Both the position numbers and the translations under genes were made by a program. A model generated the notes under the pieces. That model had not been told where the DNA came from. It did no database searches and was given only the letters and a program-made list of their open reading frames with translations. DNA of 62,977 nucleotides, filler included, from Dehalococcoidia bacterium (GTDB taxonomy: Bacteria; Chloroflexota; Dehalococcoidia; DSTF01; JACRBR01): assembly GCA_041494685.1 (NCBI GenBank). It is 5 parts of 4 records of this genome, joined end to end, with 100 filler letters (N's around TTAATTAATTAA, not from the genome) between each part and the next. Parts side by side here need not be neighbours in the genome. Positions count along the whole stretch, not along the records: positions 1 to 12,536 come from JBGQBE010000003.1; 4 more parts are not named here. One strand, written 5' to 3'. This document shows, in pieces, positions 1-12,536 of the stretch. Position 1 is the first letter of the stretch, and every line of letters starts with the position of its first letter.

Positions 1-357
1 CTCCGCCGGATCGCCGTCCGCGTCGGAGACGTTCTTCCAGTTCACGACGTAGCGGCCTTGCGGCAGACCGGGCTGCAGGGGCACCGACATCGTCGCGCGG
101 TCGGTGTTATCGAGCACGGCGGGGCCCGAGGCGACGGACTGGCCGCGGTCGCGGTTCACCTGGATGTCGTACGTGCCCGCGACCTTCTGGATGTCCTGCG
201 TGAACGTGATCGAGACCCGGTCGGGAGAGGCCGCGACGACCTCTCCCTTGCCCGGGATCGAACTCTTGTAGTGCGCATGAGCCAGCGCCGTCGTGGCGAG
301 CACGGCCATCAGCAGGAGGGCCGCGACCGTGGCTCCACCGATGCGTATCTTCCGCAT
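1..357 (-). CDS. copC: CopC-family copper-binding protein (3' end runs off window)
   Basis: Not in ORF track; manual translation MRKIRIGGATVAALLLMAVLATTALA|HAHYKSSIPGKGEVVAASPDRVSITFTQDI...GRYVVNWKNVSDADGDPAE; SD AAGGAG upstream; paralog of 375..1058. Confidence 0.85.
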   Translation of the reverse strand, partial: MRKIRIGGATVAALLLMAVLATTALAHAHYKSSIPGKGEVVAASPDRVSITFTQDIQKVAGTYDIQVNRDRGQSVASGPAVLDNTDRATMSVPLQPGLPQGRYVVNWKNVSDADGDPAE

Positions 358-374
358 GTGCGCTCCTTGCGTTG

Positions 375-1058
375 CTATGCCCTTCGTCGCGACATGATGC
401 CGCCGCCCAGCGCGAGTACCGCCGCCGCCAGCACGCCGCCGGCGATCCGCCACCCGTCGTGCGAGCCGCCCGCGGCGCCGCCCTCGCCGGTCTGCGGCAG
501 TGTACCGCCGGTCGCCGGCTTCGCCGCTGCCGGCGTGCCCTGCGGGGCCGGTGCGATGACGGTCGGCGCTGCCGCTGGCTGAGTCATCTCGGGCATCGGC
601 GTTGCCATCTCTTCCTGCCCGATGGTTTCCAGCTGCTTGTCGGCGGCCAGGTCGGCGGCCGTCGGCTGTGTGCCGATGTAGAACGAGAACGCGCCGGTCG
701 CGGCGTCGCCGTCGACCGACGACACGTTGTGCCACTGCACTTCGTAGCGGCCGTCCGCCAGCCCCGACTTCAGCGAGACCGCCAGCTTCGTGGCGTCGCT
801 TGCGTCCGGCTTCGGAGCGGAAGCCTCGGCCGATACCCCGTCCTTGTCGACGACCGTCATGCCGTAACTGCTGGCCGTGTTCTGGATCTCTTCGGCGAAG
901 GTGATGACCACCGAGGCCGGCGCCGTGCTCAACACGGCGCTCTTCGCCGGTGTGGAGCTGATGTAGTGCGCGTGTGCGGACGCGCTTCCGACGACTGCCA
1001 TCGCAGCCAGTGTCGCGGACATGGCCGCCGCGACCAACGTCCCTGTGAGTGTCTTCAT
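375..1058 (-). CDS. copC: CopC-family protein with C-terminal LPXTG-type sorting signal
   Basis: Signal peptide, HAHYISSTPA...ITFAEEI...GRYEVQWHNVSSVDGD CopC pattern; Pro/Ala linker; LPQTG + hydrophobic helix + RRR tail. Confidence 0.85.
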   Translation of the reverse strand: MKTLTGTLVAAAMSATLAAMAVVGSASAHAHYISSTPAKSAVLSTAPASVVITFAEEIQNTASSYGMTVVDKDGVSAEASAPKPDASDATKLAVSLKSGLADGRYEVQWHNVSSVDGDAATGAFSFYIGTQPTAADLAADKQLETIGQEEMATPMPEMTQPAAAPTVIAPAPQGTPAAAKPATGGTLPQTGEGGAAGGSHDGWRIAGGVLAAAVLALGGGIMSRRRA

Positions 1059-1081
1059 GAGTATGACTCCTGTCCAGTTTC

Positions 1082-1633
1082 CTAATGGGCCGCGGTCGAA
1101 CCCGCGGAGGGTGTTGTCGAACTGGCGGGCGCGGCCGTGGGAGCGGGGCCGCCGGCGTCCGCCGGCAGGTCCTTCGCCACGGCGTTGCCGACGCCCGTGC
1201 CGAACATGTGCCAGTCCTCGTGCAGCGTGGTCGACAATGCCTTCGTCTCGTCCGCCGTCTTGCCCGCGTTCAACGCCTGCAGCAGCGCCACCGCGTCGTC
1301 GTGGAACTTCGTGGTAGACGGCTTCACGTCATCGGTCCAGCCCGTGAGCGCGAGCACGCGGATCGCCGTGCGCAGCGTCGGCACGTACTTGCCGTCAATC
1401 TTGCCGCCCTGCAACGCGGTGTCCAGGTCGTGCAGCGGCAGGCTCGAGATCGTGACCCAGGCGTTCAGCATCTCGTCACGCTGCACACGAAGCGTAAGCG
1501 CGTCAAGACTCGCCTGCGTCGTCGGGTCGGTCTTCGCGTCGCTGCTGCTGCTCCCGCACGCCGCGGCGGCGATGGCGGCTGCCGCGACCGAGAGCGCGGC
1601 GAGCAGCAGCACACCTCGCTTGAGGTACGTCAT
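1082..1633 (-). CDS. His-rich predicted lipoprotein, unknown function, in copper operon
   Basis: Lipobox-like AAACG after hydrophobic stretch; helical body with LHDLD, FHDDA, LHEDWH; SD GGAGGA. Confidence 0.7.
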   Translation of the reverse strand: MTYLKRGVLLLAALSVAAAAIAAAACGSSSSDAKTDPTTQASLDALTLRVQRDEMLNAWVTISSLPLHDLDTALQGGKIDGKYVPTLRTAIRVLALTGWTDDVKPSTTKFHDDAVALLQALNAGKTADETKALSTTLHEDWHMFGTGVGNAVAKDLPADAGGPAPTAAPASSTTPSAGSTAAH

Positions 1634-1664
1634 GGACTTCCTCCGGTCAAACAGATCGAAAGGG

Positions 1665-2138
1665 TCAGGCGGCGGCGAGCGCCATGGGCGGCCGTGGCTC
1701 GGGCCGGCGCGTGATGCCGCGCAGCACCGGTTCGGCTACGACGACGAGGAGCGCCAGCATGGCGGGCGCCAGGATCAGCGGGTCGCTCAGCAGCAGTTGG
1801 CCCGGACCCGAGGTCATGGGGACGTCGCTGCAGTTGCCGGGCGAGACGTGGCAGTGCGCTACGTGCACGGAGTCCTCGGCGGCGGCATGGGCATCGGGGA
1901 GGAACAGGTGGTCGTAGGGGAGCACGGCGGGCAGCACGGCGAGGAAGACCAGTATCGAGAGCGTCGCCCTCGCGACGGTCCGCCGCGTGCGCTTGTGCCG
2001 CAGTGCCTCGTCCGGCCGCCAGATGGCGGCCATCGTGACGGCGAATGCGACGACGGCGGCGAGCGTGACGCGCGCGTCCAGCACCGGCGTCTGCGCGGCG
2101 CTCCGCGCCACGTGCAGCAAGGGGAGTGTTCCGGGCAT
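1665..2138 (-). CDS. Membrane protein with His/Cys cluster and C-terminal PEPRPP motif (putative CutF/CruR-like leader)
   Basis: TACACT -10 and GGAGG SD before ATG 2138; two hydrophobic segments; DH..H..HVAHCHVSPGNC; RRPEPRPP 6 codons before stop. Confidence 0.6.
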   Translation of the reverse strand: MPGTLPLLHVARSAAQTPVLDARVTLAAVVAFAVTMAAIWRPDEALRHKRTRRTVARATLSILVFLAVLPAVLPYDHLFLPDAHAAAEDSVHVAHCHVSPGNCSDVPMTSGPGQLLLSDPLILAPAMLALLVVVAEPVLRGITRRPEPRPPMALAAA

Positions 2139-2282
2139 ACGAGCCTCGTGCCTCCGGCCGGAGTGTACCAAGCACCCGGTGGGGGCCGCCCGGCCAATCG
2201 GCCCGTATTGCAGCCGCCCGCGGTCGAACGTAGAATGCGTCCAACCCCCGAGAGGGTGTGCCCCATAGCCAGGAGGCGCTCA

Positions 2283-2717
2283 ATGCCGCACGAAGAAGCT
2301 CTGCGTACCGTACAGCTGTTCTCGCAGCTCACCAGCAAGGACATCACGCGACTCGGCCGCGCCGTCGTGGAGCGCTCGTACAAGAAGGGTGAGACGATCG
2401 TGAAAGAAGGCGAGCAGGCCGTCGCCTTCTTCATCGTGATCGAAGGCAAAGTCGAGGTATCGCAATCGTCAGGCTCGAAGAAGGCCCAGGTGCTCAACAC
2501 GCTCGGCCCGAACGCGACGTTCGGCGAGATGGCGCTTCTGGATGGCGGCCCGCGCGCGGCCACGGTGAAGGCGTTGGAGGACACGAAGTGCCTGGTGCTC
2601 TCGCGCTGGGACTTCGTGGCGGAGTTGCAGACGAACCCGCACATGGCGGTGGCAATGCTGCCGATCCTGAGCCGGCGTCTCCGCGAGGTAGAGGCGAAGC
2701 TCGCCGCGACGCACTAA
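2283..2717 (+). CDS. Stand-alone cyclic nucleotide-binding domain protein
   Basis: FGEMALLDGGPRAATVKA phosphate-binding cassette; AGGAGG SD; no C-terminal HTH. Confidence 0.9.
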   Translation: MPHEEALRTVQLFSQLTSKDITRLGRAVVERSYKKGETIVKEGEQAVAFFIVIEGKVEVSQSSGSKKAQVLNTLGPNATFGEMALLDGGPRAATVKALEDTKCLVLSRWDFVAELQTNPHMAVAMLPILSRRLREVEAKLAATH

Positions 2718-2776
2718 GCGGGCGAACCGAACTCGGTGAACACGGACGGCGGGCGCGCAAGCGTCCGCCGTCTGCG

Positions 2777-3217
2777 TCAGTGGGAGACGGTCTCGCCGCC
2801 GCGGCCGCGCGGCCCCGGCGTCTTCCACCCGCCGAGCCCCACGGCGCCAGGACGCGCAAGGTTGTCGAGGATGCGTGCGATGACGGAGGGACGCTCCTTC
2901 TCCGTGAAGGTGTGCTCCAGCCCCCAATTCACGATCGCCTCGATGACCGGCGCCAGAGAGAGGCCCTTCTCCGTGAGCAGGTACTCCGCGCGGAGCGGGT
3001 GCGACCCGTAGAGCTGGCGCCGGACGAAGCCTTCCGCCTCGAGCATCTTCAGCCGGTCGGAGAGGATCTTGGTGGGCATGCCGGGCGAGCGCTCGCGCAG
3101 CTCGGTGAACTTCGTGCGGCCCGTGTAGAGCTCGCGCAAGATGATCAGCGTCCAGCGCTCGCCGATAAGGTCCATCGTGCGCGCGATGGGGCATGGCTGG
3201 TTGTAGCTTCGGTTCAT
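2777..3217 (-). CDS. HxlR-family winged-helix transcriptional regulator
   Basis: CPIARTMDLIGERWTLIILREL...KILSDRLKMLE...EYLLTEKG. Confidence 0.9.
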   Translation of the reverse strand: MNRSYNQPCPIARTMDLIGERWTLIILRELYTGRTKFTELRERSPGMPTKILSDRLKMLEAEGFVRRQLYGSHPLRAEYLLTEKGLSLAPVIEAIVNWGLEHTFTEKERPSVIARILDNLARPGAVGLGGWKTPGPRGRGGETVSH

Positions 3218-3339
3218 GGCAACTCGCTCCCTGACACGGGGTCCAACCGCAGGCTACCACGCACTTGACCGAAATTGGGGCATCACTTTAGAATCTGAAC
3301 TCACGGGCTGCTCACAGTCGCCGGCGAACGGGACTCCGT

Positions 3340-3822
3340 ATGGCTCACTCACCTGCCGCGCCACTCCACGACGCGATCCTCCTGCCGGCGCAGGAGATCG
3401 CCGACATCGTCCGCGCCATGAGCGGGGCCGATGCCTCCCGCCGTCCCGAACCTGGCACGTGGAGCGCGAGGGAGATCATCTCGCACCTCTGTCAGACTGA
3501 CAACGAGAGCTTCCTCGACGGCATCGGGCGCTTCGTGCTCGAGGACACGCCGGAGATCGAGGTGACGCCCGGCGTCACCCACTACACGCCGGAACGGCAC
3601 ACGATAGCGCTGGACGACCTCGTCGACGGGTTCCTGCGCCAGTACGAGCGCATCGCCGACTACGTGGCGCGCCTGGGCGACGAGCAGTTCGTGCGGCGCG
3701 CGCACATCGCGCACTTCAAGGACACGCCGCTCGGCGAATACCCCACGCTCGCGGATTGGGTACGTAGGATCAGTGAGTCACACCTGCAGGGGCACCTCGC
3801 CGAGTTGCGCGCGCGCCCGTAG
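3340..3822 (+). CDS. DinB-family protein
   Basis: WSAREIISHL and C-terminal HLQGH metal-ligand pattern. Confidence 0.8.
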   Translation: MAHSPAAPLHDAILLPAQEIADIVRAMSGADASRRPEPGTWSAREIISHLCQTDNESFLDGIGRFVLEDTPEIEVTPGVTHYTPERHTIALDDLVDGFLRQYERIADYVARLGDEQFVRRAHIAHFKDTPLGEYPTLADWVRRISESHLQGHLAELRARP

Positions 3823-3906
3823 CGTGGCCAGCAGGTTCGTCCGCCCCGCCCAAAGAGCAGTGAGAGCGTGCCTCAGACGGGGCACCATGCATGGAAGGAG
3901 CAAGAC

Positions 3907-4257
3907 ATGGCAGACAAACTCGTCCACTTCGAGATCCACGGCAAGGACGGCAAGCAGATCCAGCGCTTCTATTCGAGCTTGTTCGGCTGGGGCGTCAACA
4001 CGGACAACCCGATGAACTATGGAATGGTCACGGACGCTGGTATGGGCGGCGGTATTACGGGCTCCGACATGGCGCCGGCGGTCGTGCTCTACGTCGAGGT
4101 GCCGGACCTGCCTGCGGCGCTGAAGAAGGCTGAGGCGCTGGGCGCCACGACGATCATGCAGCCCATGCAAGTGCCGGGCGGGCCGGAGCTGGCCCAGTTC
4201 CGTGACCCGGCGGGCAACGTCTTCGGCCTCGTCCGCGCGGGCAGCATGGGCGCGTAG
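3907..4257 (+). CDS. VOC/glyoxalase-family protein
   Basis: LVHFEI...FYSSLFGW...FRDPAGNVFGL; AAGGAG SD. Confidence 0.9.
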   Translation: MADKLVHFEIHGKDGKQIQRFYSSLFGWGVNTDNPMNYGMVTDAGMGGGITGSDMAPAVVLYVEVPDLPAALKKAEALGATTIMQPMQVPGGPELAQFRDPAGNVFGLVRAGSMGA

Positions 4258-4330
4258 GTAGCGCACCCGCGAGTCGCCCGCAGCGCGTAGGCTGTGCGTA
4301 CTGAGTTCGTGGTTAGCGGAGGAGAGCGTG

Positions 4331-4684
4331 ATGGCGGAGGATTGGGCGCGGCCCGTCGTGGCCTGGCAGTTGCAGGCGCGGGATCCGGAGGCGATGAAGG
4401 CGTTCTACGCGCAGATGTTCAACTGGCAGGTCGGCGACGGCCCGATCATGCTGGTACCGGCGGGTATCGGCGGGCCCGAGCCGGGACCGATCGGCATCAT
4501 CACGAAGAGCGACACGTCGCGCGTGGTGCTGAACGTGCAGGTGCTCGACCTGGCGGCCGCGATCGAGAAGGCGAAGACCCTCGGCGGCTCGATGATCGCG
4601 GCGCCGTACGACGTGCCGAACGGACCGACGATCGCGTCGATCGCCGACCCCGAGGGGAACGTGCTTGGGCTAGTCCAGCAGTAG
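4331..4684 (+). CDS. VOC/glyoxalase-family protein
   Basis: FYAQMFNW...IADPEGNVLGL; tandem with previous VOC gene. Confidence 0.85.
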   Translation: MAEDWARPVVAWQLQARDPEAMKAFYAQMFNWQVGDGPIMLVPAGIGGPEPGPIGIITKSDTSRVVLNVQVLDLAAAIEKAKTLGGSMIAAPYDVPNGPTIASIADPEGNVLGLVQQ

Positions 4685-4687
4685 CGG

Positions 4688-5899
4688 CTACAGCACCAGC
4701 AGGAGCGGCGCTTCGAGCAGGCGCTTGATCTCGCCCAGAAACTGCGCGCCCTGCGCGCCGTCCGTGATCCGGTGGTCGGCGGAGAGCGCCACTTTCATCA
4801 CGTCCCGCACGACGACGGCGCCGTCGCGCGCGGCGGGCTGCGGCAGGACGCTGCCGGTGCCGAGGATCGCGGTCTGCGGCGGCTGGATGATGCCGATCAG
4901 CGTCTCGACGCCGTACGCGCCCAGGTTCGTGATCGTGAAGGTACCGGCGGTGATCTCGTCGGGCCGCAGCGAGCCGCCCTTCGCGCGCGCGACGAGGTCC
5001 GTCGACGCGCGGGCGATCTCGGCCAGCGTCTTCCGGCCCGCGTCCAGCAGGGCCGGCGCGATCAGCCCGTCGTCGAGCGCGATGGCGATGCAGACGTGCT
5101 GGGCGTCGCGCCGCACGGCCTGATCTCCATCGAAGGTGACGTTGAACGCGGGGTGGCGCTGCAGCGCCAGCGCGCACGCGCGCACGATGAGGTCGTTGAC
5201 GCTGATGCGTTCCTCCGCGGGCAGCGCGGCGTTCGCCTGCTTGCGGAACGCCATCGACTCCGTCATGTCGATATCGACGAGCAGATAGTAGTGGGGCGCC
5301 TCGCGCTTGCTCTGCGCCATGCGCCGCGCGATCGCCTGCCGCATCTTCGACCCGCCGAGCGGTTGCGGCGTACTCCCGGCCGCTGCGGCGCGCGCGGGTG
5401 CAGTGGCGGCCGCCTCGACGTCGCGCTTGATGATCCGGCCGTCGGGGCCGCTGCCGCGCAGGCCGCGCAGGTCGACGCCGCGCTCCTCGGCGATGTGGCG
5501 GGCGACGGGCGATACGCGCAGCCGGCCGTTCTCGCGCGGCGGCGCCGCGACGGCCGGTGCTGCGGGCGCGGGCGGCGCTGCCGCGATAACTGCACTGGCC
5601 GGCGCGGGCTTCGACGCCGCCGGCGCGAGCGCGCTGCTCGTGTAGCTGGAGATGTCATCGCCGGCGTCGGCGATGATCGCGATGACGCCGCCGATCGGGA
5701 TGACGTCGCCTTCCTGCGCCAGCGTCTTGCGGAAGACGCCGCTCTCGAACGCCTCGATCTCGACGTTCGCCTTGTCGGTCTCGATCTCGGCGATGATCTC
5801 GCCGCGCTCGACGGCGTCGCCCTCATGCTTGCGCCAGGCGACGATCGTGCCCTCGACCATGTCGGCGCCCATCTGCGGCATCACGACTTCGCTGATCAT
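4688..5899 (-). CDS. pdhC: Dihydrolipoamide acetyltransferase (PDH E2)
   Basis: Lipoyl domain IETDKA, E3-binding GSGPDGRI, catalytic DHRITDG. Confidence 0.92.
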   Translation of the reverse strand: MISEVVMPQMGADMVEGTIVAWRKHEGDAVERGEIIAEIETDKANVEIEAFESGVFRKTLAQEGDVIPIGGVIAIIADAGDDISSYTSSALAPAASKPAPASAVIAAAPPAPAAPAVAAPPRENGRLRVSPVARHIAEERGVDLRGLRGSGPDGRIIKRDVEAAATAPARAAAAGSTPQPLGGSKMRQAIARRMAQSKREAPHYYLLVDIDMTESMAFRKQANAALPAEERISVNDLIVRACALALQRHPAFNVTFDGDQAVRRDAQHVCIAIALDDGLIAPALLDAGRKTLAEIARASTDLVARAKGGSLRPDEITAGTFTITNLGAYGVETLIGIIQPPQTAILGTGSVLPQPAARDGAVVVRDVMKVALSADHRITDGAQGAQFLGEIKRLLEAPLLLVL

Positions 5900-6870
5900 C
5901 AGACCATGCCTCGTACCATGCGGATGATGTCCGCCTCCTGCGGCAGAGCCGCCTGCTCGAGCGCGCCGTTGTATGGCATCGGCACGTCGGCGCCCGAGCA
6001 GCGCAGCACCGGCGCGTCGAGGTCGTCGAACGCCCATTCCTGGATGATCGCCGCGATCTCGCCGCCGAAGCCGCCGAACTCCCAGTCGTCCTCGACGACG
6101 ATGGCGCGGTTGGTCTTGCGCACGGACGCCAGGATCGCCTCGGTGTCGAGCGGGCGCAGCGTGCGCAGGTTCAGCACCTCGCACGAGATGCCTTCCAGCG
6201 CGAGTTGCTCTGCGGCGCGGGCGGCCTGGTGCAGGCTGCCGGAATAGCCGATCAAGGTGACGTCGGTACCTTCGCGGAAGATCTCCGCCTTGCCGAACGG
6301 CAGGCGGTAGGGCTCCTCAGGCACGTCGCCCTTCGACGTGTAGAGCGCGGTGTGCTCGATGAAGATGACGGGGTTCTGGTCGTCGAACGCCGTCATCAGC
6401 AGTCCCTTGGCGTCGTACGGCGTCGCCGGCACGACGACCTTTAGCCCCGGCACATGCGCGTACCACGACTCCAGGCTCTGCGAGTGCTGCGCGCCGAGCT
6501 GGCTGCCCGCGCCGCCCGCCATGCGGATCACGATCGGCACGTTGATCTGCCCGTTCGACATGTAGTAGAGCTTCGAGGCGTTGTTCACGATCTGGTCGAT
6601 GGCGAGCAGGCTGAAGTTGATCGTCATCAACTCGACCATCGGCTTCAGCCCGGCCATCGCCGCGCCGATGCCCGCGCCCACGACGACCGACTCCGAGATC
6701 GGTGTGTCCTTGACGCGCCGCTCGCCGAACTCCTCCAGGAAGCCCTTGGTGACGGCGTAGGAGCCGCCGTAGGCGCCGATGTCCTCGCCCATGAGGAACA
6801 CGCGCTCGTCGTGCTGCAGCTGGTAGCGCAGCGCCTGCCGCAGTGCCTGGCGATACGTGATCTCAGGCAT
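5899..6870 (-). CDS. pdhB: Pyruvate dehydrogenase E1 beta subunit
   Basis: GEDIGAYGG, DTPISE, GAQHSQ motifs. Confidence 0.93.
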   Translation of the reverse strand: MPEITYRQALRQALRYQLQHDERVFLMGEDIGAYGGSYAVTKGFLEEFGERRVKDTPISESVVVGAGIGAAMAGLKPMVELMTINFSLLAIDQIVNNASKLYYMSNGQINVPIVIRMAGGAGSQLGAQHSQSLESWYAHVPGLKVVVPATPYDAKGLLMTAFDDQNPVIFIEHTALYTSKGDVPEEPYRLPFGKAEIFREGTDVTLIGYSGSLHQAARAAEQLALEGISCEVLNLRTLRPLDTEAILASVRKTNRAIVVEDDWEFGGFGGEIAAIIQEWAFDDLDAPVLRCSGADVPMPYNGALEQAALPQEADIIRMVRGMV

Positions 6871-7873
6871 CGGCGGCTTCCTTGTAGACGAAGCGGTGCA
6901 GGCTCTCGATCGGCGGCGCCGGGCTCTCCTCGGCGAACTGCGCCGCGTCGCGCGCGATCTCGTCCACTTCCGCCTGCAACGCGGCGATCCGCGCGGCGTC
7001 GATGACGCCGTCCGCGGTCAGGGCGTGCTGGAGCTGCTTGATCGGGTCGAGCGTGCGCCAGCGCTCCACCTCATCCTTCGAGCGGTAGAACTCCGCGTCG
7101 GCCATCGAGTGGCCGCGGAAGCGGTAGCAGAGCGCCTCCAGGAACACGGGACCGTCGCCCGCGCGCGCGCGCTTCGAGAGGCGCGCCACCGCGTCGCGCA
7201 CGGCGACGACGTTCATGCCATCGACCTGCTCGGCGTGGATGCCGTAGGCCTGGGCGCGTTTGTAGATCTCCTCCACGGCGGAGACCCGGCGGATCGCCGT
7301 GCCCATGCCGTAGAGGTTGTTCTCGACGATGAACACCACCGGCAGCTTCCAGACGGCCGCAAGGTTCAGCGCCTCGTGGAACTCGCCCTCGTTCACGGCG
7401 CCGTCGCCGAAGAAGTTGACGGCGACGCGGTCGCTGCCCTTGTACTGCTCGGCGAGCGCGAGTCCGCACGCGAGCGGCATGTGGCCCGCGACGATGGCGT
7501 AGCCGCCCATGAACGACTTCTCGCGGTCGAACAGATGCATCGATCCGCCGCGGCCGCCGCTCACGCCGGTCGCGCGTCCGTAGAGCTCCGCCATGATGCG
7601 ACGCGGCTCCAGGCCGCGCGCCAGCGCGTGGCCGTGCTCGCGGTAGTGGCTGACGATGTAGTCGTCCGGCCGCAGCGCCGCGATCGCGCCGGTGGCGACG
7701 GCCTCCTGGCCGATGTAGAGGTGCAGGAATCCCTTGATGCGCCCTTTGGCGTACATCTCCGCGCACTTCTCTTCGAAGCGGCGGATCAGCATCATCGTGC
7801 GCAGCAGGGCCACGCGGTCGGGCGGACCGTCGCTTGCGCCGCGGGGCGCGTCGTGCTGGGTGATGCTTGTCAT
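6863..7873 (-). CDS. pdhA: Pyruvate dehydrogenase E1 alpha subunit
   Basis: GFLHLYIGQEA, GDGA...ENN TPP motif, YRFRGHSMAD. Confidence 0.93.
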   Translation of the reverse strand: MTSITQHDAPRGASDGPPDRVALLRTMMLIRRFEEKCAEMYAKGRIKGFLHLYIGQEAVATGAIAALRPDDYIVSHYREHGHALARGLEPRRIMAELYGRATGVSGGRGGSMHLFDREKSFMGGYAIVAGHMPLACGLALAEQYKGSDRVAVNFFGDGAVNEGEFHEALNLAAVWKLPVVFIVENNLYGMGTAIRRVSAVEEIYKRAQAYGIHAEQVDGMNVVAVRDAVARLSKRARAGDGPVFLEALCYRFRGHSMADAEFYRSKDEVERWRTLDPIKQLQHALTADGVIDAARIAALQAEVDEIARDAAQFAEESPAPPIESLHRFVYKEAADA

Positions 7874-7874
7874 G

Positions 7875-9266
7875 TCACTCCGTCCAGAAGTGGATCGCCT
7901 CGCCACTGACGGCCAGCGCCGCTTCCTTGATCGTCTCCGCCAGCGTCGGGTGGGCCGCTACGGTCCATCCCAGTTCGCGCGGCGTCGCTTCCAGCGTCAT
8001 GCCCAGCGAAGCCTCGCCTAGCAACTCGGTGACCATCGGCCCGATCATGTGCACGCCAAGCGTTTCGCCGGTGTGCGCATCGGCGACGATCTTCACGAGA
8101 CCGTCCGTCTGGAGTATCGCCTTGGCACGCCCATTGGCACGTATCGGGAACTTGCCTACTTTCACCTCGATACCGGCGTCGCGGGCCTGTTTCTCGGTCA
8201 AACCGATGCTGGCGACCTCCGGCTGGCAGTAGGTGGCCACCGGGATGCGCGCGTAGTTGAGGTCGGGCGGCGTCAGCCCCGCGAGCCGCTCGACCAGCGT
8301 GACGCCCATGGCCGAGGCCACGTGCGCGAGGTTCTTCGTGCCGGTGACGTCGCCGATCGCGTACACGCCGGGCACGCTCGTCTGCATGCCGGCGTCGATC
8401 TTCACCCAGCCGCGCTCGATCGCCACGCCGATCGCGTCCAGTCCCAGCGCGGCGACATTCGCCTCAAAGCCGATGCTGACGAGCACCTTATCGGCTGTGA
8501 GTTGCTGCTCGGCGCCTTTCGCGGTGAACGTCACGGTGCCGCGGCCGTTTGCCGCAGCCGCGCCGGCGACCGTCGCGCCGGTGACGAACTTGATCCGCCG
8601 CTTCTTGAGCGAGCGCTCGAGCTGCGTGCTGATCTCCTCGTCTTCCAGTGGCAGCAGGTGGTCCATCGCTTCGACGATCGTGACATCGACGCCGTAGGCG
8701 CTCCAGAACGTCGCGAACTCGACGCCGATCGGCCCGCCGCCGATGATGGCCACGCTGCCCGGTTGCTCGCGCAGCTCCAGGGCGCCGCGACTGTTGATGA
8801 TCGTCTCGCCGTCCGTCTCCAGCCCGGGCAGCGCGCGCGGCCACGATCCAGTGGCGATGATCACGACGGCCGCCTCGACCGTCTCGTCGGCGCCCTGGAC
8901 GCGCAGGCGGTGCGGCGCCTCGAACGCGGCCTCGCCCGTGAGCACGCGCACCTTGTTCTTGCTCAGCAGGAACTCGACGCCCTTCACCATCTGGTCGACG
9001 ACGTCCCGGCTGCGGTCGATCGCCTTCGCCATGTCGACGCGCAGGTTGTCGAACGAGATGCCATACGCCTCGGCCTCGCGCAGCAGGCTGACGACCTCCG
9101 CGTTCCACAGCAGCGACTTGCTGGGGATGCAGCCCCAGTTCAGGCAGAGGCCGCCCACGCGGTCCTTCTCGATCAGCGCGACGTTCTTGCCCAGTTGCGC
9201 GGCACGGATGGCCGCCACGTAGCCGCCCGGGCCGCCGCCGACGATCGCGATGTCGTATTCAGCCAC
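7875..9266 (-). CDS. lpdA: Dihydrolipoyl dehydrogenase (E3)
   Basis: [17 protein letters not shown] redox disulfide, HPTLAE; GTG start overlapping lipA end. Confidence 0.95.
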
Positions 9267-10179
9267 GTTGCACCTGCTCGATCGGGATGATCTCGGACTG
9301 GTCGCCCGGCGCCAGGCCGGCCAGCTTCTCCGCGTGGTAGGAGGAGCGCACCAGCGGTCCCGCCTCGACGTGCGTGAAACCGAGTTCGCGGCCGTAGTCG
9401 CGGAACGCCTGGTACTCGGACGGGTCGTAGTAGCGGTCAATCGGCAGGTGCTGCATGCTCGGCCGCAGGTACTGGCCGATCGTCAGGATGTCGCAGCCGT
9501 GGGCGCGCAGATCGCGCATCACCTGGAACAGCTCATCCTGCGTCTCCCCCAGGCCGACCATGAAGCCCGACTTCGTCAGCATGTCCGGCGCGGCGTCCTT
9601 CGCGCGCCGGATCAGCTCCAGCGAGCGCTCGTAGCGCGCCTGCGGCCGCACGACGCGATACAGCCGCGGCGCTGTCTCGATGTTGTGGTTCAGCACGAAC
9701 GGCCGGGCATCGACCACCATCGCCAGCGCGTCCCAGTTGCCCTTGAAGTCGGGGATCAGCACCTCGACGCGCACGGCCGGATCGTTGCGCCGGATGGCGC
9801 GGATGCAGGCGGCGAAGATCTCGGCGCCGCCGCTAGGGACGTCGTCGCGGTTCACGGACGTGATGACGACGTAGTCGAGCGCGAGCGTTCGCACGGTCTG
9901 CGCGAGCCGGAACGGCTCCAGCACGTCTATCTCACCCGGCCGTCCCGTAGTGACGGCGCAGAAGCCGCACGAGCGCGTGCAGACGTCGCCGAGGATCATG
10001 AACGTCGCGGTGCCGGAGTTCCAGCACTCGCCGGCGTTCGGGCAGCGCGCTTCTTCGCAGACGGTGTGCAGCCCCTGCTCGCGCATCAACCGCTGCAGCG
10101 ACTGGTAGCGGTCGCCCGCCGGGAACCGGACCTTCAGCCAGTCCGGCTTGCGGGGTATCGGGTGCGTCTCAGCGACCAT
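9259..10179 (-). CDS. lipA: Lipoyl synthase
   Basis: [27 protein letters not shown]. Confidence 0.96.
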
Positions 10180-10849
10180 CGGCGACTCCAGCCAGCGCGT
10201 CCGCTTCGACGAGATCCAGCGCGAACCGCCGCGCGAGCGCGGCCGCGACTTCGTCCTCGACGGCGCGCATGTCGAAGGTCTCGTCTGTGAGCTGGCGCAT
10301 CGACGTGACGCCTGCGGACGCGTTGCCGCACGGGATGATCTGCTTGAAGTAGTCGAGGTCCGTATTGACGTTAAGCGCGAACCCGTGCGTCGTGACGCCG
10401 CGCGAGATGCGCACGCCGATCGCGGCGATCTTCTCGCCGCGCACCCAGGCGCCGGGCAGCCCCTCGGCGCGCTCCGCCGCGATGCCGAAGCGCGCGAGCA
10501 CGTCGATCAGCGCCGCTTCCAGCGAGCGGACGTATGCGACCGGCCCCTGCCCCCAGTCGCGGATCGGCAAGATGGGGTAGCCGACGAGTTGGCCCGGGCC
10601 GTGGAACGTCACGTCGCCGCCACGGTCGGTGCGGCGCACGTCCGCGCCGCGCGAACGGTACGCCTCCCGTGTGAGCAGCAGGTGCTCGGGATTGCCGCGC
10701 ACGCCGAGCGTGTAGACCGGCGGATGCTCGAGGAGGAGGATGGCGGGCGTGCCGCCGTCGCGCACCGCCTCGGCGATGCGTTGCTGTAACTGCCAGGCGT
10801 CCTGGTAGGGGGTGAGTCCGGGCCGGAGCAGGGTGCAGCGGGTTCCCAA
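10169..10849 (-). CDS. lipB: Lipoyl(octanoyl) transferase
   Basis: [43 protein letters not shown]; start codon uncertain (TTG 10849 or GTG 10900). Confidence 0.92.
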
Positions 10850-11002
10850 CGGCCTGTCTTCCAGAAGCGGTGAACGCGTCGTCCAGGTTGAGGGTAGCAC
10901 AGAGCTGCGCCTCTCACCTCAGTGTCGGCGGGGCGGGCCACTGCTGGCGTAGGGAGATGCCCGATCTGGTGCCGCAGGGGGCTGCGCCCCGGCGAGACAA
11001 GG

Positions 11003-11031
11003 AAAAAGGGCCTCGCGTTACGCGAGGCCCT
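11003..11031 (-). terminator. Rho-independent terminator
   Basis: Minus strand AGGGCCTCGCG-TAA-CGCGAGGCCCT followed by TTTT, downstream of 11063..11764. Confidence 0.85.
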
Positions 11032-11062
11032 CTGCCAGCATGGTCGCTACGTCGCCGCGGGG

Positions 11063-11764
11063 CTAGTCGCGCCCCCCGCCGTCGTGACCGCCGCCACCGT
11101 GGCCTTCGCCGCGCTGGCTGCCACTCTGGCCGCCACTCTGGCTGTCGCCGCGCTGCTGGCCGTCGTCCTTGCGCTCACACGAACCGCCTGCCGCAGGCGT
11201 GGTGCCGGCAGCCGGTGTGCCGGTGAAGGAGCCGATGCCGCAGCCTTCGTGTTCGGGCGCTTCCGTCGGGCACGCGACGGGCGTGGCGCCGGCGGCCGGG
11301 GTGCCGCTGGCAGCGCCGTGCTCGCAGTCGTTCTTGTGGTTACAGGGGACCGGCGTGCCGCTGAAGTTTGCCGCGGGCGTGTCGCCGGACTGGCTGTGCT
11401 CGCAGCCTTCGCCGCGGTGCTCTTCGCCCGTGCAAGCGGCGGTCGTCGTGGTTGTCGCAGCCGGCGTGTCGGTTGCTACCGGCGTCGTCGTGGCCGCGCC
11501 TGGTGTGGCGTTGCCCTTGTGGTGGTCGCATTCGTCGCCGGCGGCGGAAGTGGCGGCTGTGGCCGTGGCTGTCGGGGCCGGCGTGTCGGTTGCTACCGGC
11601 GTCGAGGTGTCAGTGGCCACCGGGGTGTTGGTGGCTGCGACGTCGGTGGGAGTGCTGGTCGGGTCGGCCAGGAAGTTCACCGCGTCCTGCGAGGCAAACG
11701 CCCCGACGGCGGCGAGCGAGACCAAGCCCACTCCGATGACTGTAGCGATGATCTTCTGTCTCAC
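11063..11764 (-). CDS. Secreted low-complexity Thr/Pro-rich protein with Cys/His modules
   Basis: Signal peptide; ATDTP-type repeats; CDHH, CEH, CNH, HEGC; AGGAG SD; terminator downstream. Confidence 0.7.
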   Translation of the reverse strand: MRQKIIATVIGVGLVSLAAVGAFASQDAVNFLADPTSTPTDVAATNTPVATDTSTPVATDTPAPTATATAATSAAGDECDHHKGNATPGAATTTPVATDTPAATTTTTAACTGEEHRGEGCEHSQSGDTPAANFSGTPVPCNHKNDCEHGAASGTPAAGATPVACPTEAPEHEGCGIGSFTGTPAAGTTPAAGGSCERKDDGQQRGDSQSGGQSGSQRGEGHGGGGHDGGGRD

Positions 11765-11863
11765 AGGCGTTGCTCCTGAATCTATAGCATGGGTCGTGAG
11801 GCTCTTGCCTCACAGGTGATATCGGCTCGGGGAGGCCAGAAGTAACGCTAGATGTGCCAATTC

Positions 11864-12535
11864 TTACGCCAGACGGGTCACGATGGTGCTCGCCGAGTGG
11901 GGCGGCAGCTCCACAATGCGCGTGCTCCGGATTCGGCGGTCGCTCATGCCGACGGCGTTGGGCCGTTCAAATGAGTTCGCCGAATCGACGCCGGCTCCGT
12001 TGATCTCGTATACCGCTGCGTCGGCATCCGCGACCGCGCCTGCGATCTCAAGTGAAGCCGTCTGGGTTCGATGCAGGTTCACGGCGTGGACGTATGCCGT
12101 GCCGGACGCGTCGTCGTAGGTGACCGCGACGTCCACCCAGGGCACGTCCTGGCCGCGCGCAGAGAAAGTCTCTGACTCCGCGAGGGCGTCCAGTGCGACG
12201 CTGCCGCGGTGCTCCGCATGCATCAGCAGCGGGTAGTAGATGGTCTGCAGGAACAGCCGATCCGGCGACGTGAAGATCGGCGCGATGACGTTGACCATCT
12301 GCGCCATGTTGGCCATGCCGACGCCCCAGGCGTTGCGGATCAGCGTATTCAGGTACGCCGCGACGCAGAGCGCGTCCGCCAGGTCGTACTGCTCTTCGTG
12401 CAGGGTGCCGTACTTCGCGAAGTCGTTGCGGCGGTAGAAGACGTTCCACTCATCGACGCAGATGCGGATCTCGCGCCGGATATCGTAGCGGTGGCGCGCC
12501 GCCTCGATCAGGCCCCAGAGGTCGCGCAGGTAGCG
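11864..12535 (-). CDS. Alpha-L-arabinofuranosidase (GH51), C-terminal part (5' truncated by contig end)
   Basis: DEWNV...EEQYDLADAL...MANMAQMVNVIAPI...ANSFERPNAV. Confidence 0.85.
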   Translation of the reverse strand, partial: RYLRDLWGLIEAARHRYDIRREIRICVDEWNVFYRRNDFAKYGTLHEEQYDLADALCVAAYLNTLIRNAWGVGMANMAQMVNVIAPIFTSPDRLFLQTIYYPLLMHAEHRGSVALDALAESETFSARGQDVPWVDVAVTYDDASGTAYVHAVNLHRTQTASLEIAGAVADADAAVYEINGAGVDSANSFERPNAVGMSDRRIRSTRIVELPPHSASTIVTRLA

Positions 12536-12536
12536 C

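Follow-up and report, generated by a model that had tools for sequence, protein, structure and literature searches.

We report a leader gene that heads a copper operon of a Dehalococcoidia bacterium (NCBI GenBank assembly GCA_041494685.1) and that probably encodes a small membrane-inserted copper sensor acting during its own synthesis. The gene lies on the minus strand at positions 1665 to 2138 of the window, by which we mean the whole stretch of DNA that was analysed (62,977 nucleotides, of which positions 1 to 12,536 come from record JBGQBE010000003.1, contig C3 of the assembly, and the rest is N or lies off that contig). Its homologues almost certainly form a real family that is conserved as the first gene of copper operons. 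The protein motifs of the family, a His/Cys cluster and a Pro-Pro close to the stop codon, are far beyond chance, being invariant in the family and placed at a fixed distance from each other. Judged by this layout, the leader appears to be a sequence-distinct analogue of the copper-sensing leaders CruR and CutF, and the comparison of its homologues strongly suggests that the ribosome stalls at the Pro-Pro.

The leader gene and its protein

The features of the leader gene, and of the gap that follows it, are listed below.

2144..2147, minus strand: GAGG ribosome-binding site, 5 nucleotides ahead of the leader ATG at 2138 (sequence reading)
1665..2138, minus strand: leader gene, putative sensor; protein P0001 of 157 amino acids plus stop (open reading frame and translation)
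2019..2069, minus strand: hydrophobic segment 1, about residues 24-40 (translation; helix 22-40 in the AlphaFold2 (AF2) model)
1908..1967, minus strand: hydrophobic segment 2, about residues 58-75, ending in PYDH (translation and alignments)
1818..1865, minus strand: candidate copper site H92-x2-H95-C96-H97-x5-C103-x-D105-x-P107 (invariance across the family)
1722..1781, minus strand: hydrophobic segment 3, about residues 120-139, within the fixed-length spacer (translation; AF2 helix 120-143)
1686..1703, minus strand: PEPRPP, residues 146-151, with the putative stall codons P150 at 1689-1691 and P151 at 1686-1688
1665..1685, minus strand: tail of six residues, MALAAA, and TGA stop at 1667-1665 (translation)
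1634..1664, minus strand: intergenic gap of 31 nucleotides with a predicted hairpin and the GGAGG of the lipoprotein gene (1644-1640)

The His/Cys cluster that a sequence-only reading of this DNA had described was read from the translation as H92, H95-C96-H97 and C103. The same reading had put PEPRPP 46-48 residues after the last Cys and six codons before the stop, and both distances hold: 46 residues lie between C103 and P150, 47 between C103 and P151, and MALAAA and the TGA follow. The C-terminus reads ...RRPEPRPPMALAAA, with RRPEPRPP at residues 144-151. The gap of 31 nucleotides from the leader stop to the next ATG at 1633 was likewise confirmed. The count of hydrophobic segments had to be corrected from two to three, the third lying between the Cys cluster and PEPRPP.

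Segments 1 and 2 are separated by an Arg-rich loop, and PYDH occupies residues 74-77. Segment 2 is likely an N-in/C-out export anchor; this orientation follows from the positive-inside rule rather than from a topology predictor. An Arg-rich stretch and a hydrophobic segment stand ahead of the metal cluster in the leader and in its single-anchor relatives alike. The AF2 model of the leader was poor (predicted local distance difference test, pLDDT, 63; predicted template modelling score, pTM, 0.33), showed no folded domain and was not good enough for a fold search. Comparison of the leader with Pfam and NCBIfam gave no family, the best match being DUF7378 at a sub-threshold E of 0.017.

Invariant residues and fixed spacing in the family

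Forty homologues were found at E<=0.01 by a word-indexed search and 167 relatives at E<=1e-3 by a profile search of 1.84 billion representatives. Two members carry the name of an organism, one from a Chloroflexota metagenome-assembled genome and one from a Dehalococcoidia metagenome-assembled genome. A query with the single protein detected the gene in 28 of the 35 genomes of the window's taxonomic family and in 2 of a further 25 from the order. With a broad profile, it was detected in 49 of the 401 genomes sampled from the class, which cover 33 of 222 genera and about a dozen families; of 401 genomes sampled across the phylum, 5 had it. Close relatives keep all three hydrophobic segments, with about 50% identity over the whole length. 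Many distant relatives are 100-135 amino acids long and consist of one N-terminal anchor, a His-rich linker, HxxHCH-x5-C and an end of the form xPPPRxx. Segment 1 is confined to the three-segment subfamily and is absent from the shorter relatives, in which segment 2 corresponds to the lone N-terminal anchor.

The sequence-only reading had predicted conservation of the His/Cys cluster and the terminal Pro-Pro. In an alignment of 64 diverse members, the sole invariant residues were H92, H95, C96, H97, C103, P150 and P151, while H77 and P107 were nearly invariant; P74, Y75, D76 and H77 were invariant in the alignment of close relatives. The pattern HC[HP]x4-7C was found in 177 of 185 proteins, with the x5 spacing in 175 of those 177, and was followed by a downstream Pro-Pro in 168. 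The nine proteins without Pro-Pro were mostly truncated, and four of them belong to a PDVPVP subclade. The tail after the last Pro comprised 1-13 residues in 165 of the 168 relatives. Membrane-type tails carried xRPP in 88 of 111 cases, and the other tails had a Pro before the Pro-Pro (the PPPR form) in 28 of 37.

The distance that separates the two motifs was fixed, as had also been predicted. The last Cys and the last Pro were 45-49 residues apart in 165 of the 168 proteins with both motifs, with a mode of 47, which is near the 48 of CruR. Measured as the number of residues that separate the second Cys from the last Pro, the distance was 45 in 2 proteins, 46 in 8, 47 in 101, 48 in 37 and 49 in 17; values of 51, 53 and 192 occurred once each. 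The protein with a spacing of 192 has 361 amino acids and departs from the family pattern past the Cys cluster; we interpret it as the product of a frameshift or of a chimeric gene call. At the level of genomic loci, the spacing was 45-49 in 51 of 53. Twenty-two matches that ended short of the C-terminus served as a control for a search artefact: 18 of them still had the Pro-Pro at 45-48 residues, one more had an earlier Pro-Pro at 48, and three were truncated or aberrant. Because those 18 kept the distance, the profile search did not create the fixed spacing.

The spacer is fixed in length and free in sequence, as a comparison with a second linker of the same 64 proteins shows. The spacer from C103 to P150 varied between 44 and 48 residues (standard deviation 1.0), whereas the His-rich linker from H77 to H92 varied between 11 and 66 (standard deviation 9.3); column conservation was equally low in the two (0.29 for the spacer and 0.27 for the linker). 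A membrane-like segment lies within the spacer of 111 of 180 relatives; in 37 there is clearly none, and the spacing is identical in both groups. Once the proteins are finished, the side of the membrane that carries the Pro-Pro would therefore differ between members, which points to a role of the Pro-Pro before release from the ribosome.

The first-Pro codon varied synonymously across the 53 loci (CCG in 26, CCA in 12, CCT in 11 and CCC in 4), so that selection acts on the Pro-Pro residues and not on an RNA motif. Two other explanations of the C-terminal end were rejected. The Pro-Pro codons do not serve as an anti-ribosome-binding-site sequence as a general rule, given that CCTCC occurred in just 13 of the 53 loci and the codons are free. 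A degradation tag of the type ...LAA was also discarded, since an AA ending was found in only 13 of 111 membrane-type tails and 3 of 37 other tails.

Position ahead of copper genes

In 50 of 54 loci, the gene had a copper gene (CopC, SCO1 or PCuAC) downstream of it on the same strand, as expected from the sequence-only reading. The 54 loci comprise the window, 19 loci from its taxonomic family, 12 further loci and 22 from other families of the class; two of them, L003 and L045, come from a genome (G021) that is flagged unpublished. CopC was downstream in all 19 other loci of the window's family, with a lipoprotein gene in between in 14. It was downstream in 11 of the 12 further real loci (a spurious match, L033, being excluded), the exception being L022. 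Among the 22 loci of the other families, CopC followed in 13 and SCO1/SenC in 6, one of which had PCuAC too. No copper gene was found in the remaining three: L046, which lies at a contig end, L050, which is ahead of a periplasmic binding protein gene, and L056.

The coding strand around the leader was assessed by a GC-phase test, which called the leader itself correctly in 49 of 50 cases. Of 43 confident calls for the DNA 150-650 nucleotides upstream, 36 placed its coding on the opposite strand, which indicates that the leader is usually first in its unit. A promoter and terminator scan of window positions 1-2400 found no promoter-like site; it found one terminator-like site, at 705-692 on the minus strand, inside a CopC gene.

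Comparison with known copper-sensing and arrest systems

CruR (Bp2923) of Bordetella pertussis, a DUF2946 protein, has CXXC at 90-93 and RAPP at 139-142; its last Cys is separated from its last Pro by 48 residues, and 3 residues follow the Pro-Pro (PMC9426467). In two Ralstonia DUF2946 genes, we counted 45-46 residues from Cys to Arg and 48-49 to the last Pro. The leader is similar to CruR in being a small exported protein, first in a copper operon, with a Cys-containing metal motif and an Arg-Pro-Pro-type ending a few residues before the stop. The last Cys is 45 residues from the Arg in both (the CruR figure within 1-2 residues), and the last Pro is at 48 in CruR and 47 in the leader. DUF2946 genes, too, precede genes for CopC, PCuAC, Sco and YcnI (PMC9426467). 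The differences are that the leader family has HCH-x5-C and RPP or PPPR, has up to three membrane segments and belongs to Chloroflexota, whereas CruR has CXXC and RAPP and belongs to Proteobacteria; the gap to the next gene is 31 nucleotides in the window and 162 at cruR, and CruR has no detectable sequence similarity to the leader.

CutF of Rhodobacter capsulatus is described as a co-translationally exported copper sensor encoded by the first gene of a copper operon (PMC9973294). It ends in PEPEGPPPRL, 2 residues past the Pro-Pro (bioRxiv 10.1101/2025.02.05.636593), and this polyproline end is similar to the xPPPRxx of the single-anchor members and to PEPRPP in the window. CutF differs in its CxxxC motif, in a Cys that precedes the last Pro by about 42 residues (counted from the published numbering) and in a cleaved signal peptide. 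A stem-loop on the next ribosome-binding site has been proven for CutF, while no such conserved structure was seen at the leader loci.

Arrest has been shown for CruR and, both in vitro and in vivo, for seven RAPP/RGPP proteins of Streptomyces lividans, several of which have membrane segments and two of which are ahead of metal-related genes (PMC12992588). This kind of arrest is therefore known outside Proteobacteria. SLIV_16130 and the four-segment SLIV_18480 have a signal sequence or several membrane segments together with conserved Cys/His, and the S. lividans proteins are like the leader in their C-terminal Arg/Pro-Pro motif and their position upstream of copper-related genes in a non-proteobacterial host. 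They were found through a search for RAPP/RGPP, a motif that the leader family lacks, and were compared with the leader by description only. In SecM, MifM and VemP, too, the nascent chain is exported or inserted into the membrane, and a C-terminal arrest motif close to the stop governs the next gene, as is proposed for the leader; they sense translocation or insertion instead of a metal and precede sec or yidC genes (bioRxiv 10.1101/2025.02.05.636593). Our literature search found no report that joins arrest peptides, copper and Chloroflexi.

Proposed mechanism and alternative explanations

We propose that segment 2 would bring the chain to the translocon, so that the H-x2-HCH-x5-C cluster would be exposed on the outer face of the membrane, where it probably binds copper. 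With the ribosome at the Pro-Pro, 47 residues further on, the cluster would have just passed out of the ribosome tunnel and the translocon. Copper occupancy of the cluster would then alter the duration of the pause at the Pro-Pro, and the pause, placed 2-11 codons ahead of the stop in most members, would set the expression of the downstream genes, which here would be those for the lipoprotein, two CopC proteins and a CopC-CopD-cytochrome c fusion. The free sequence and fixed length of the spacer, together with the published analogues, favour a Pro-Pro that acts during translation, with the length constraint set by tunnel plus translocon, and we consider this likely. As the output, Rho protection as in CruR or plain translational coupling is possible; Rho is present in the genome, which leaves room for a CruR-like output. 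A specific hairpin output in the window seems improbable.

Several observations weigh against a sensor that works while it is being made. The motif is xRPP instead of the arrest-proven RAPP/RGPP (RAPP or RGPP occurred in none of the 53 locus tails examined), and PPP, as in CutF, is present in part of the family only. One subclade has P-V-P in place of Pro-Pro and keeps the copper context (P0039, P0047, P0057 and P0101; locus L027), and two genes, L022 and L050, both second copies in their genomes, have no copper neighbours. The three-segment subfamily is conserved over its full length at about 50% identity, including an N-terminal PLLHV motif, which fits a lasting function of the finished protein. 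On the RNA side, the gaps from the leader to the next gene span 12-197 nucleotides. In the window, a ribosome stalled at the Pro-Pro leaves the predicted openness of the lipoprotein ribosome-binding site unmoved (0.03 to 0.02), and a terminating ribosome raises it to 0.20; the leading edge of the stalled ribosome (footprint estimated) lies at about 1676 and the hairpin starts at 1662, so that the hairpin is out of its reach.

The protein-level points of this kind would fit a stable copper-binding membrane protein, for instance a tethered chaperone that would pass copper to the lipoprotein, CopC, CopD or SCO1. The proline motif would then be a structural or partner-binding element, and the upstream position a matter of operon order. 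Besides the full-length conservation, three membrane segments and N-terminal motif of the window's subfamily and the existence of the P-V-P subclade, this explanation is favoured by the six conserved His/Cys residues, which exceed the needs of a minimal sensor, and by co-occurrence with the lipoprotein: in 5 related genomes without a detected leader, a lipoprotein query likewise gave no match. It leaves unexplained the fixed-length, free-sequence spacer beside a length-variable linker, the invariant Pro-Pro on different membrane sides among members, the nearness of the Pro-Pro to the stop and the absence of a confidently folded domain, and we regard it as somewhat unlikely, though as the main alternative. 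In the three-segment subfamily, the sensor role and a stable copper-handling role may coexist.

The RNA points bear on the output that the sequence-only reading had drawn, a CutF-type switch in which a hairpin would hide the lipoprotein ribosome-binding site until stalling at PRPP opened it. The hairpin CUUUCGAUC/GACCGGAGG, with arms at 1662-1654 and 1648-1640, was indeed part of the minimum-energy fold, and the ribosome-binding site was predicted to be 97% paired; equal masking was obtained in 4 of 40 upstream shuffles. The fold energy of the 79-nucleotide region (-21.3 kcal/mol) was at chance level, with a z of 0.14 and with 97 of 200 shuffles folding equally well or better, and the hairpin structure was not conserved among the homologous loci. 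The hairpin is a predicted fold, and its role as a switch is not supported: its energy is at chance level, neither its structure nor the gap length is conserved, and it lies beyond the stalled ribosome.

The mean unpaired probability of the ribosome-binding site over 45 homologous junctions was as follows; the loci are related and the p values uncorrected.

Free RNA: 0.165
Upstream shuffled: 0.195 (p 0.06 against free RNA)
Ribosome at the Pro-Pro: 0.261 (p 0.017 against the mock ribosome)
Mock ribosome 30 nucleotides upstream: 0.183
Ribosome at the stop codon: 0.248

Masking across the loci was hence hardly above that of shuffles. In about 12 of the 45 junctions, the stalled ribosome lifted the predicted openness by at least 0.15, for example in L003 (0.02 to 0.98), L005, L011, L016, L029 and L062. 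With gaps that vary between 12 and 197 nucleotides, unmasking of the ribosome-binding site would be no more than one output among several; in the window it finds no support, and we judge the hairpin switch there quite improbable. The claim of a CruR/CutF analogue is thus supported in its comparative predictions and not in the masking hairpin or the count of two segments.

The shared layout and spacing could also reflect common descent, with the leader as a remote, diverged member of DUF2946 instead of a separate invention. One of 65 distant members aligned end to end with PF11162 (E 0.97, 10.6 bits), and the nearest named ESM Atlas cluster, labelled as DUF2946 domain-containing and carrying Pfam DUF6769 (PF20558), scored 0.89, under the 0.9 line and hence a lead only; unnamed Acidobacteriota clusters scored 0.92. 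Ozturk et al. 2023 (PMC9973294) mention CutF-like proteins from Chloroflexota as scarce, and the leader family may overlap with them. PF11162 (gathering score 23.7 bits), however, matched neither the leader nor anything in the whole genome at E<=1, and none of the 65 members was significant. A comparison by hhalign of the 64-sequence family with six Ralstonia DUF2946 sequences gave a probability of 0.4% over 6 columns, a weak negative because the DUF2946 alignment was thin, with only five close Ralstonia homologues collectable. The metal motif differs as well: HCH-x5-C does not fit CXXC or CxxxC, although it fits a looser published description of a Cys plus His site. The sequence-only reading had called the leader distinct in sequence from DUF2946, and these searches agree with it; we consider common descent unlikely. 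The family has no demonstrable membership in DUF2946, yet it appears to share the functional layout point by point.

Possible significance of the spacer

Control of copper genes by a nascent exported chain has so far been known for two proteobacterial DUF2946 proteins, and arrest for RAPP/RGPP proteins; the leader family carries the same layout into Chloroflexota. It is conceivable, and we put it forward tentatively, that this phylum invented a copper-sensing arrest peptide independently, with a 47-residue spacer that matches the 48 of the unrelated CruR. If so, spacer length would be set by the physical path through ribosome tunnel and translocon, one and the same Pro-Pro would act irrespective of whether the completed C-terminus lies inside or outside the cell, and a spacer of this type could be used generally, as a feature of the sequence, to find nascent-chain sensors of extracellular ligands in whatever phylum. 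Because its metal and proline motifs both differ and no homology is detectable, the family would escape surveys that rely on the RAPP/RGPP motif or on the DUF2946 Pfam model. The spacer, fixed in length and free in sequence, forms a clean signature for comparison when it is checked against the variable linker of these proteins. It makes the idea that length equals tunnel plus translocon directly testable and could help in the search for other sensors of this kind. The likely regulated cargo is a copper acquisition set of the CopC/CopD type, headed by an undescribed four-helix lipoprotein.

Neighbouring genes of the operon

The genes that follow the leader are listed below.

1082..1633, minus strand: lipoprotein gene, 183 amino acids, predicted four-helix bundle with conserved His, no Pfam family
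375..1058, minus strand: CopC gene 1, 227 amino acids (Pfam CopC, E 5.7e-19)
1..357, minus strand: CopC gene 2, its 3' part beyond the window edge (Pfam CopC, E 4.1e-15; start Met read from the sequence)
G000:C3:126880-129264 (L074 547-2931), minus strand: fusion of CopC, CopD, YtkA-like and cytochrome c (CxxCH) parts, 794 amino acids

The 794-amino-acid fusion lies just past the window start on the same contig and strand, as a continuation of the operon. Across the class, most loci have a gene of the lipoprotein family behind the leader. An alignment of 27 sequences showed C26, H68, W99 and H138 to be invariant and H142 nearly so, and the AF2 model was a confident four-helix bundle (pLDDT 88) whose matches in PDB were generic bundles only, the best being cytochrome c' at E 0.07. 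The protein is likely a new copper-binding lipoprotein. Together with the two CopC proteins and the CopC-CopD-cytochrome c fusion, it looks like a set for copper acquisition and delivery, in an operon that we take to resemble YcnJ-type systems.

In the first CopC (375-1058), a long linker is rich in Pro, Ala and Thr, and the hydrophobic tail at the C-terminus matched a GVDTG sorting-domain model weakly (E 4.6e-4, sub-cut-off). In L026, L064 and L066, the place of the lipoprotein is taken by a secreted protein with the mature start AHERRTVG.Y..IVGF (AHEHRDVGEYSLVV in L026); the copies in L064 and L066 had no Pfam match at E<=0.001.

Some individual loci have features of their own. In the P-V-P subclade, L027 (leader homologue at about 2443-2910) has RRPDVPVPL at the position of the Pro-Pro and lipoprotein and CopC neighbours, and thus offers a natural test of the need for Pro-Pro. 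The copy in L022 (G020:C8) has a spacing of 50 and a spacer that is not membrane-like, and that in L050 (G636:C45) is followed by a Peripla_BP_2 gene. In L007, L013 and L015, where CopC comes directly after the leader, the gaps are 106-168 nucleotides long and have very strong predicted folds (-73 to -96 kcal/mol), which could be attenuator-like structures. Divergent from the leader, at 2283-2717 on the plus strand of the window, is a gene for a protein of 144 amino acids that consists of a cyclic-nucleotide-binding domain alone. It occupies the same place in 22 distinct related loci, with an identity of 68-88%, a conservation well above that of the leader.

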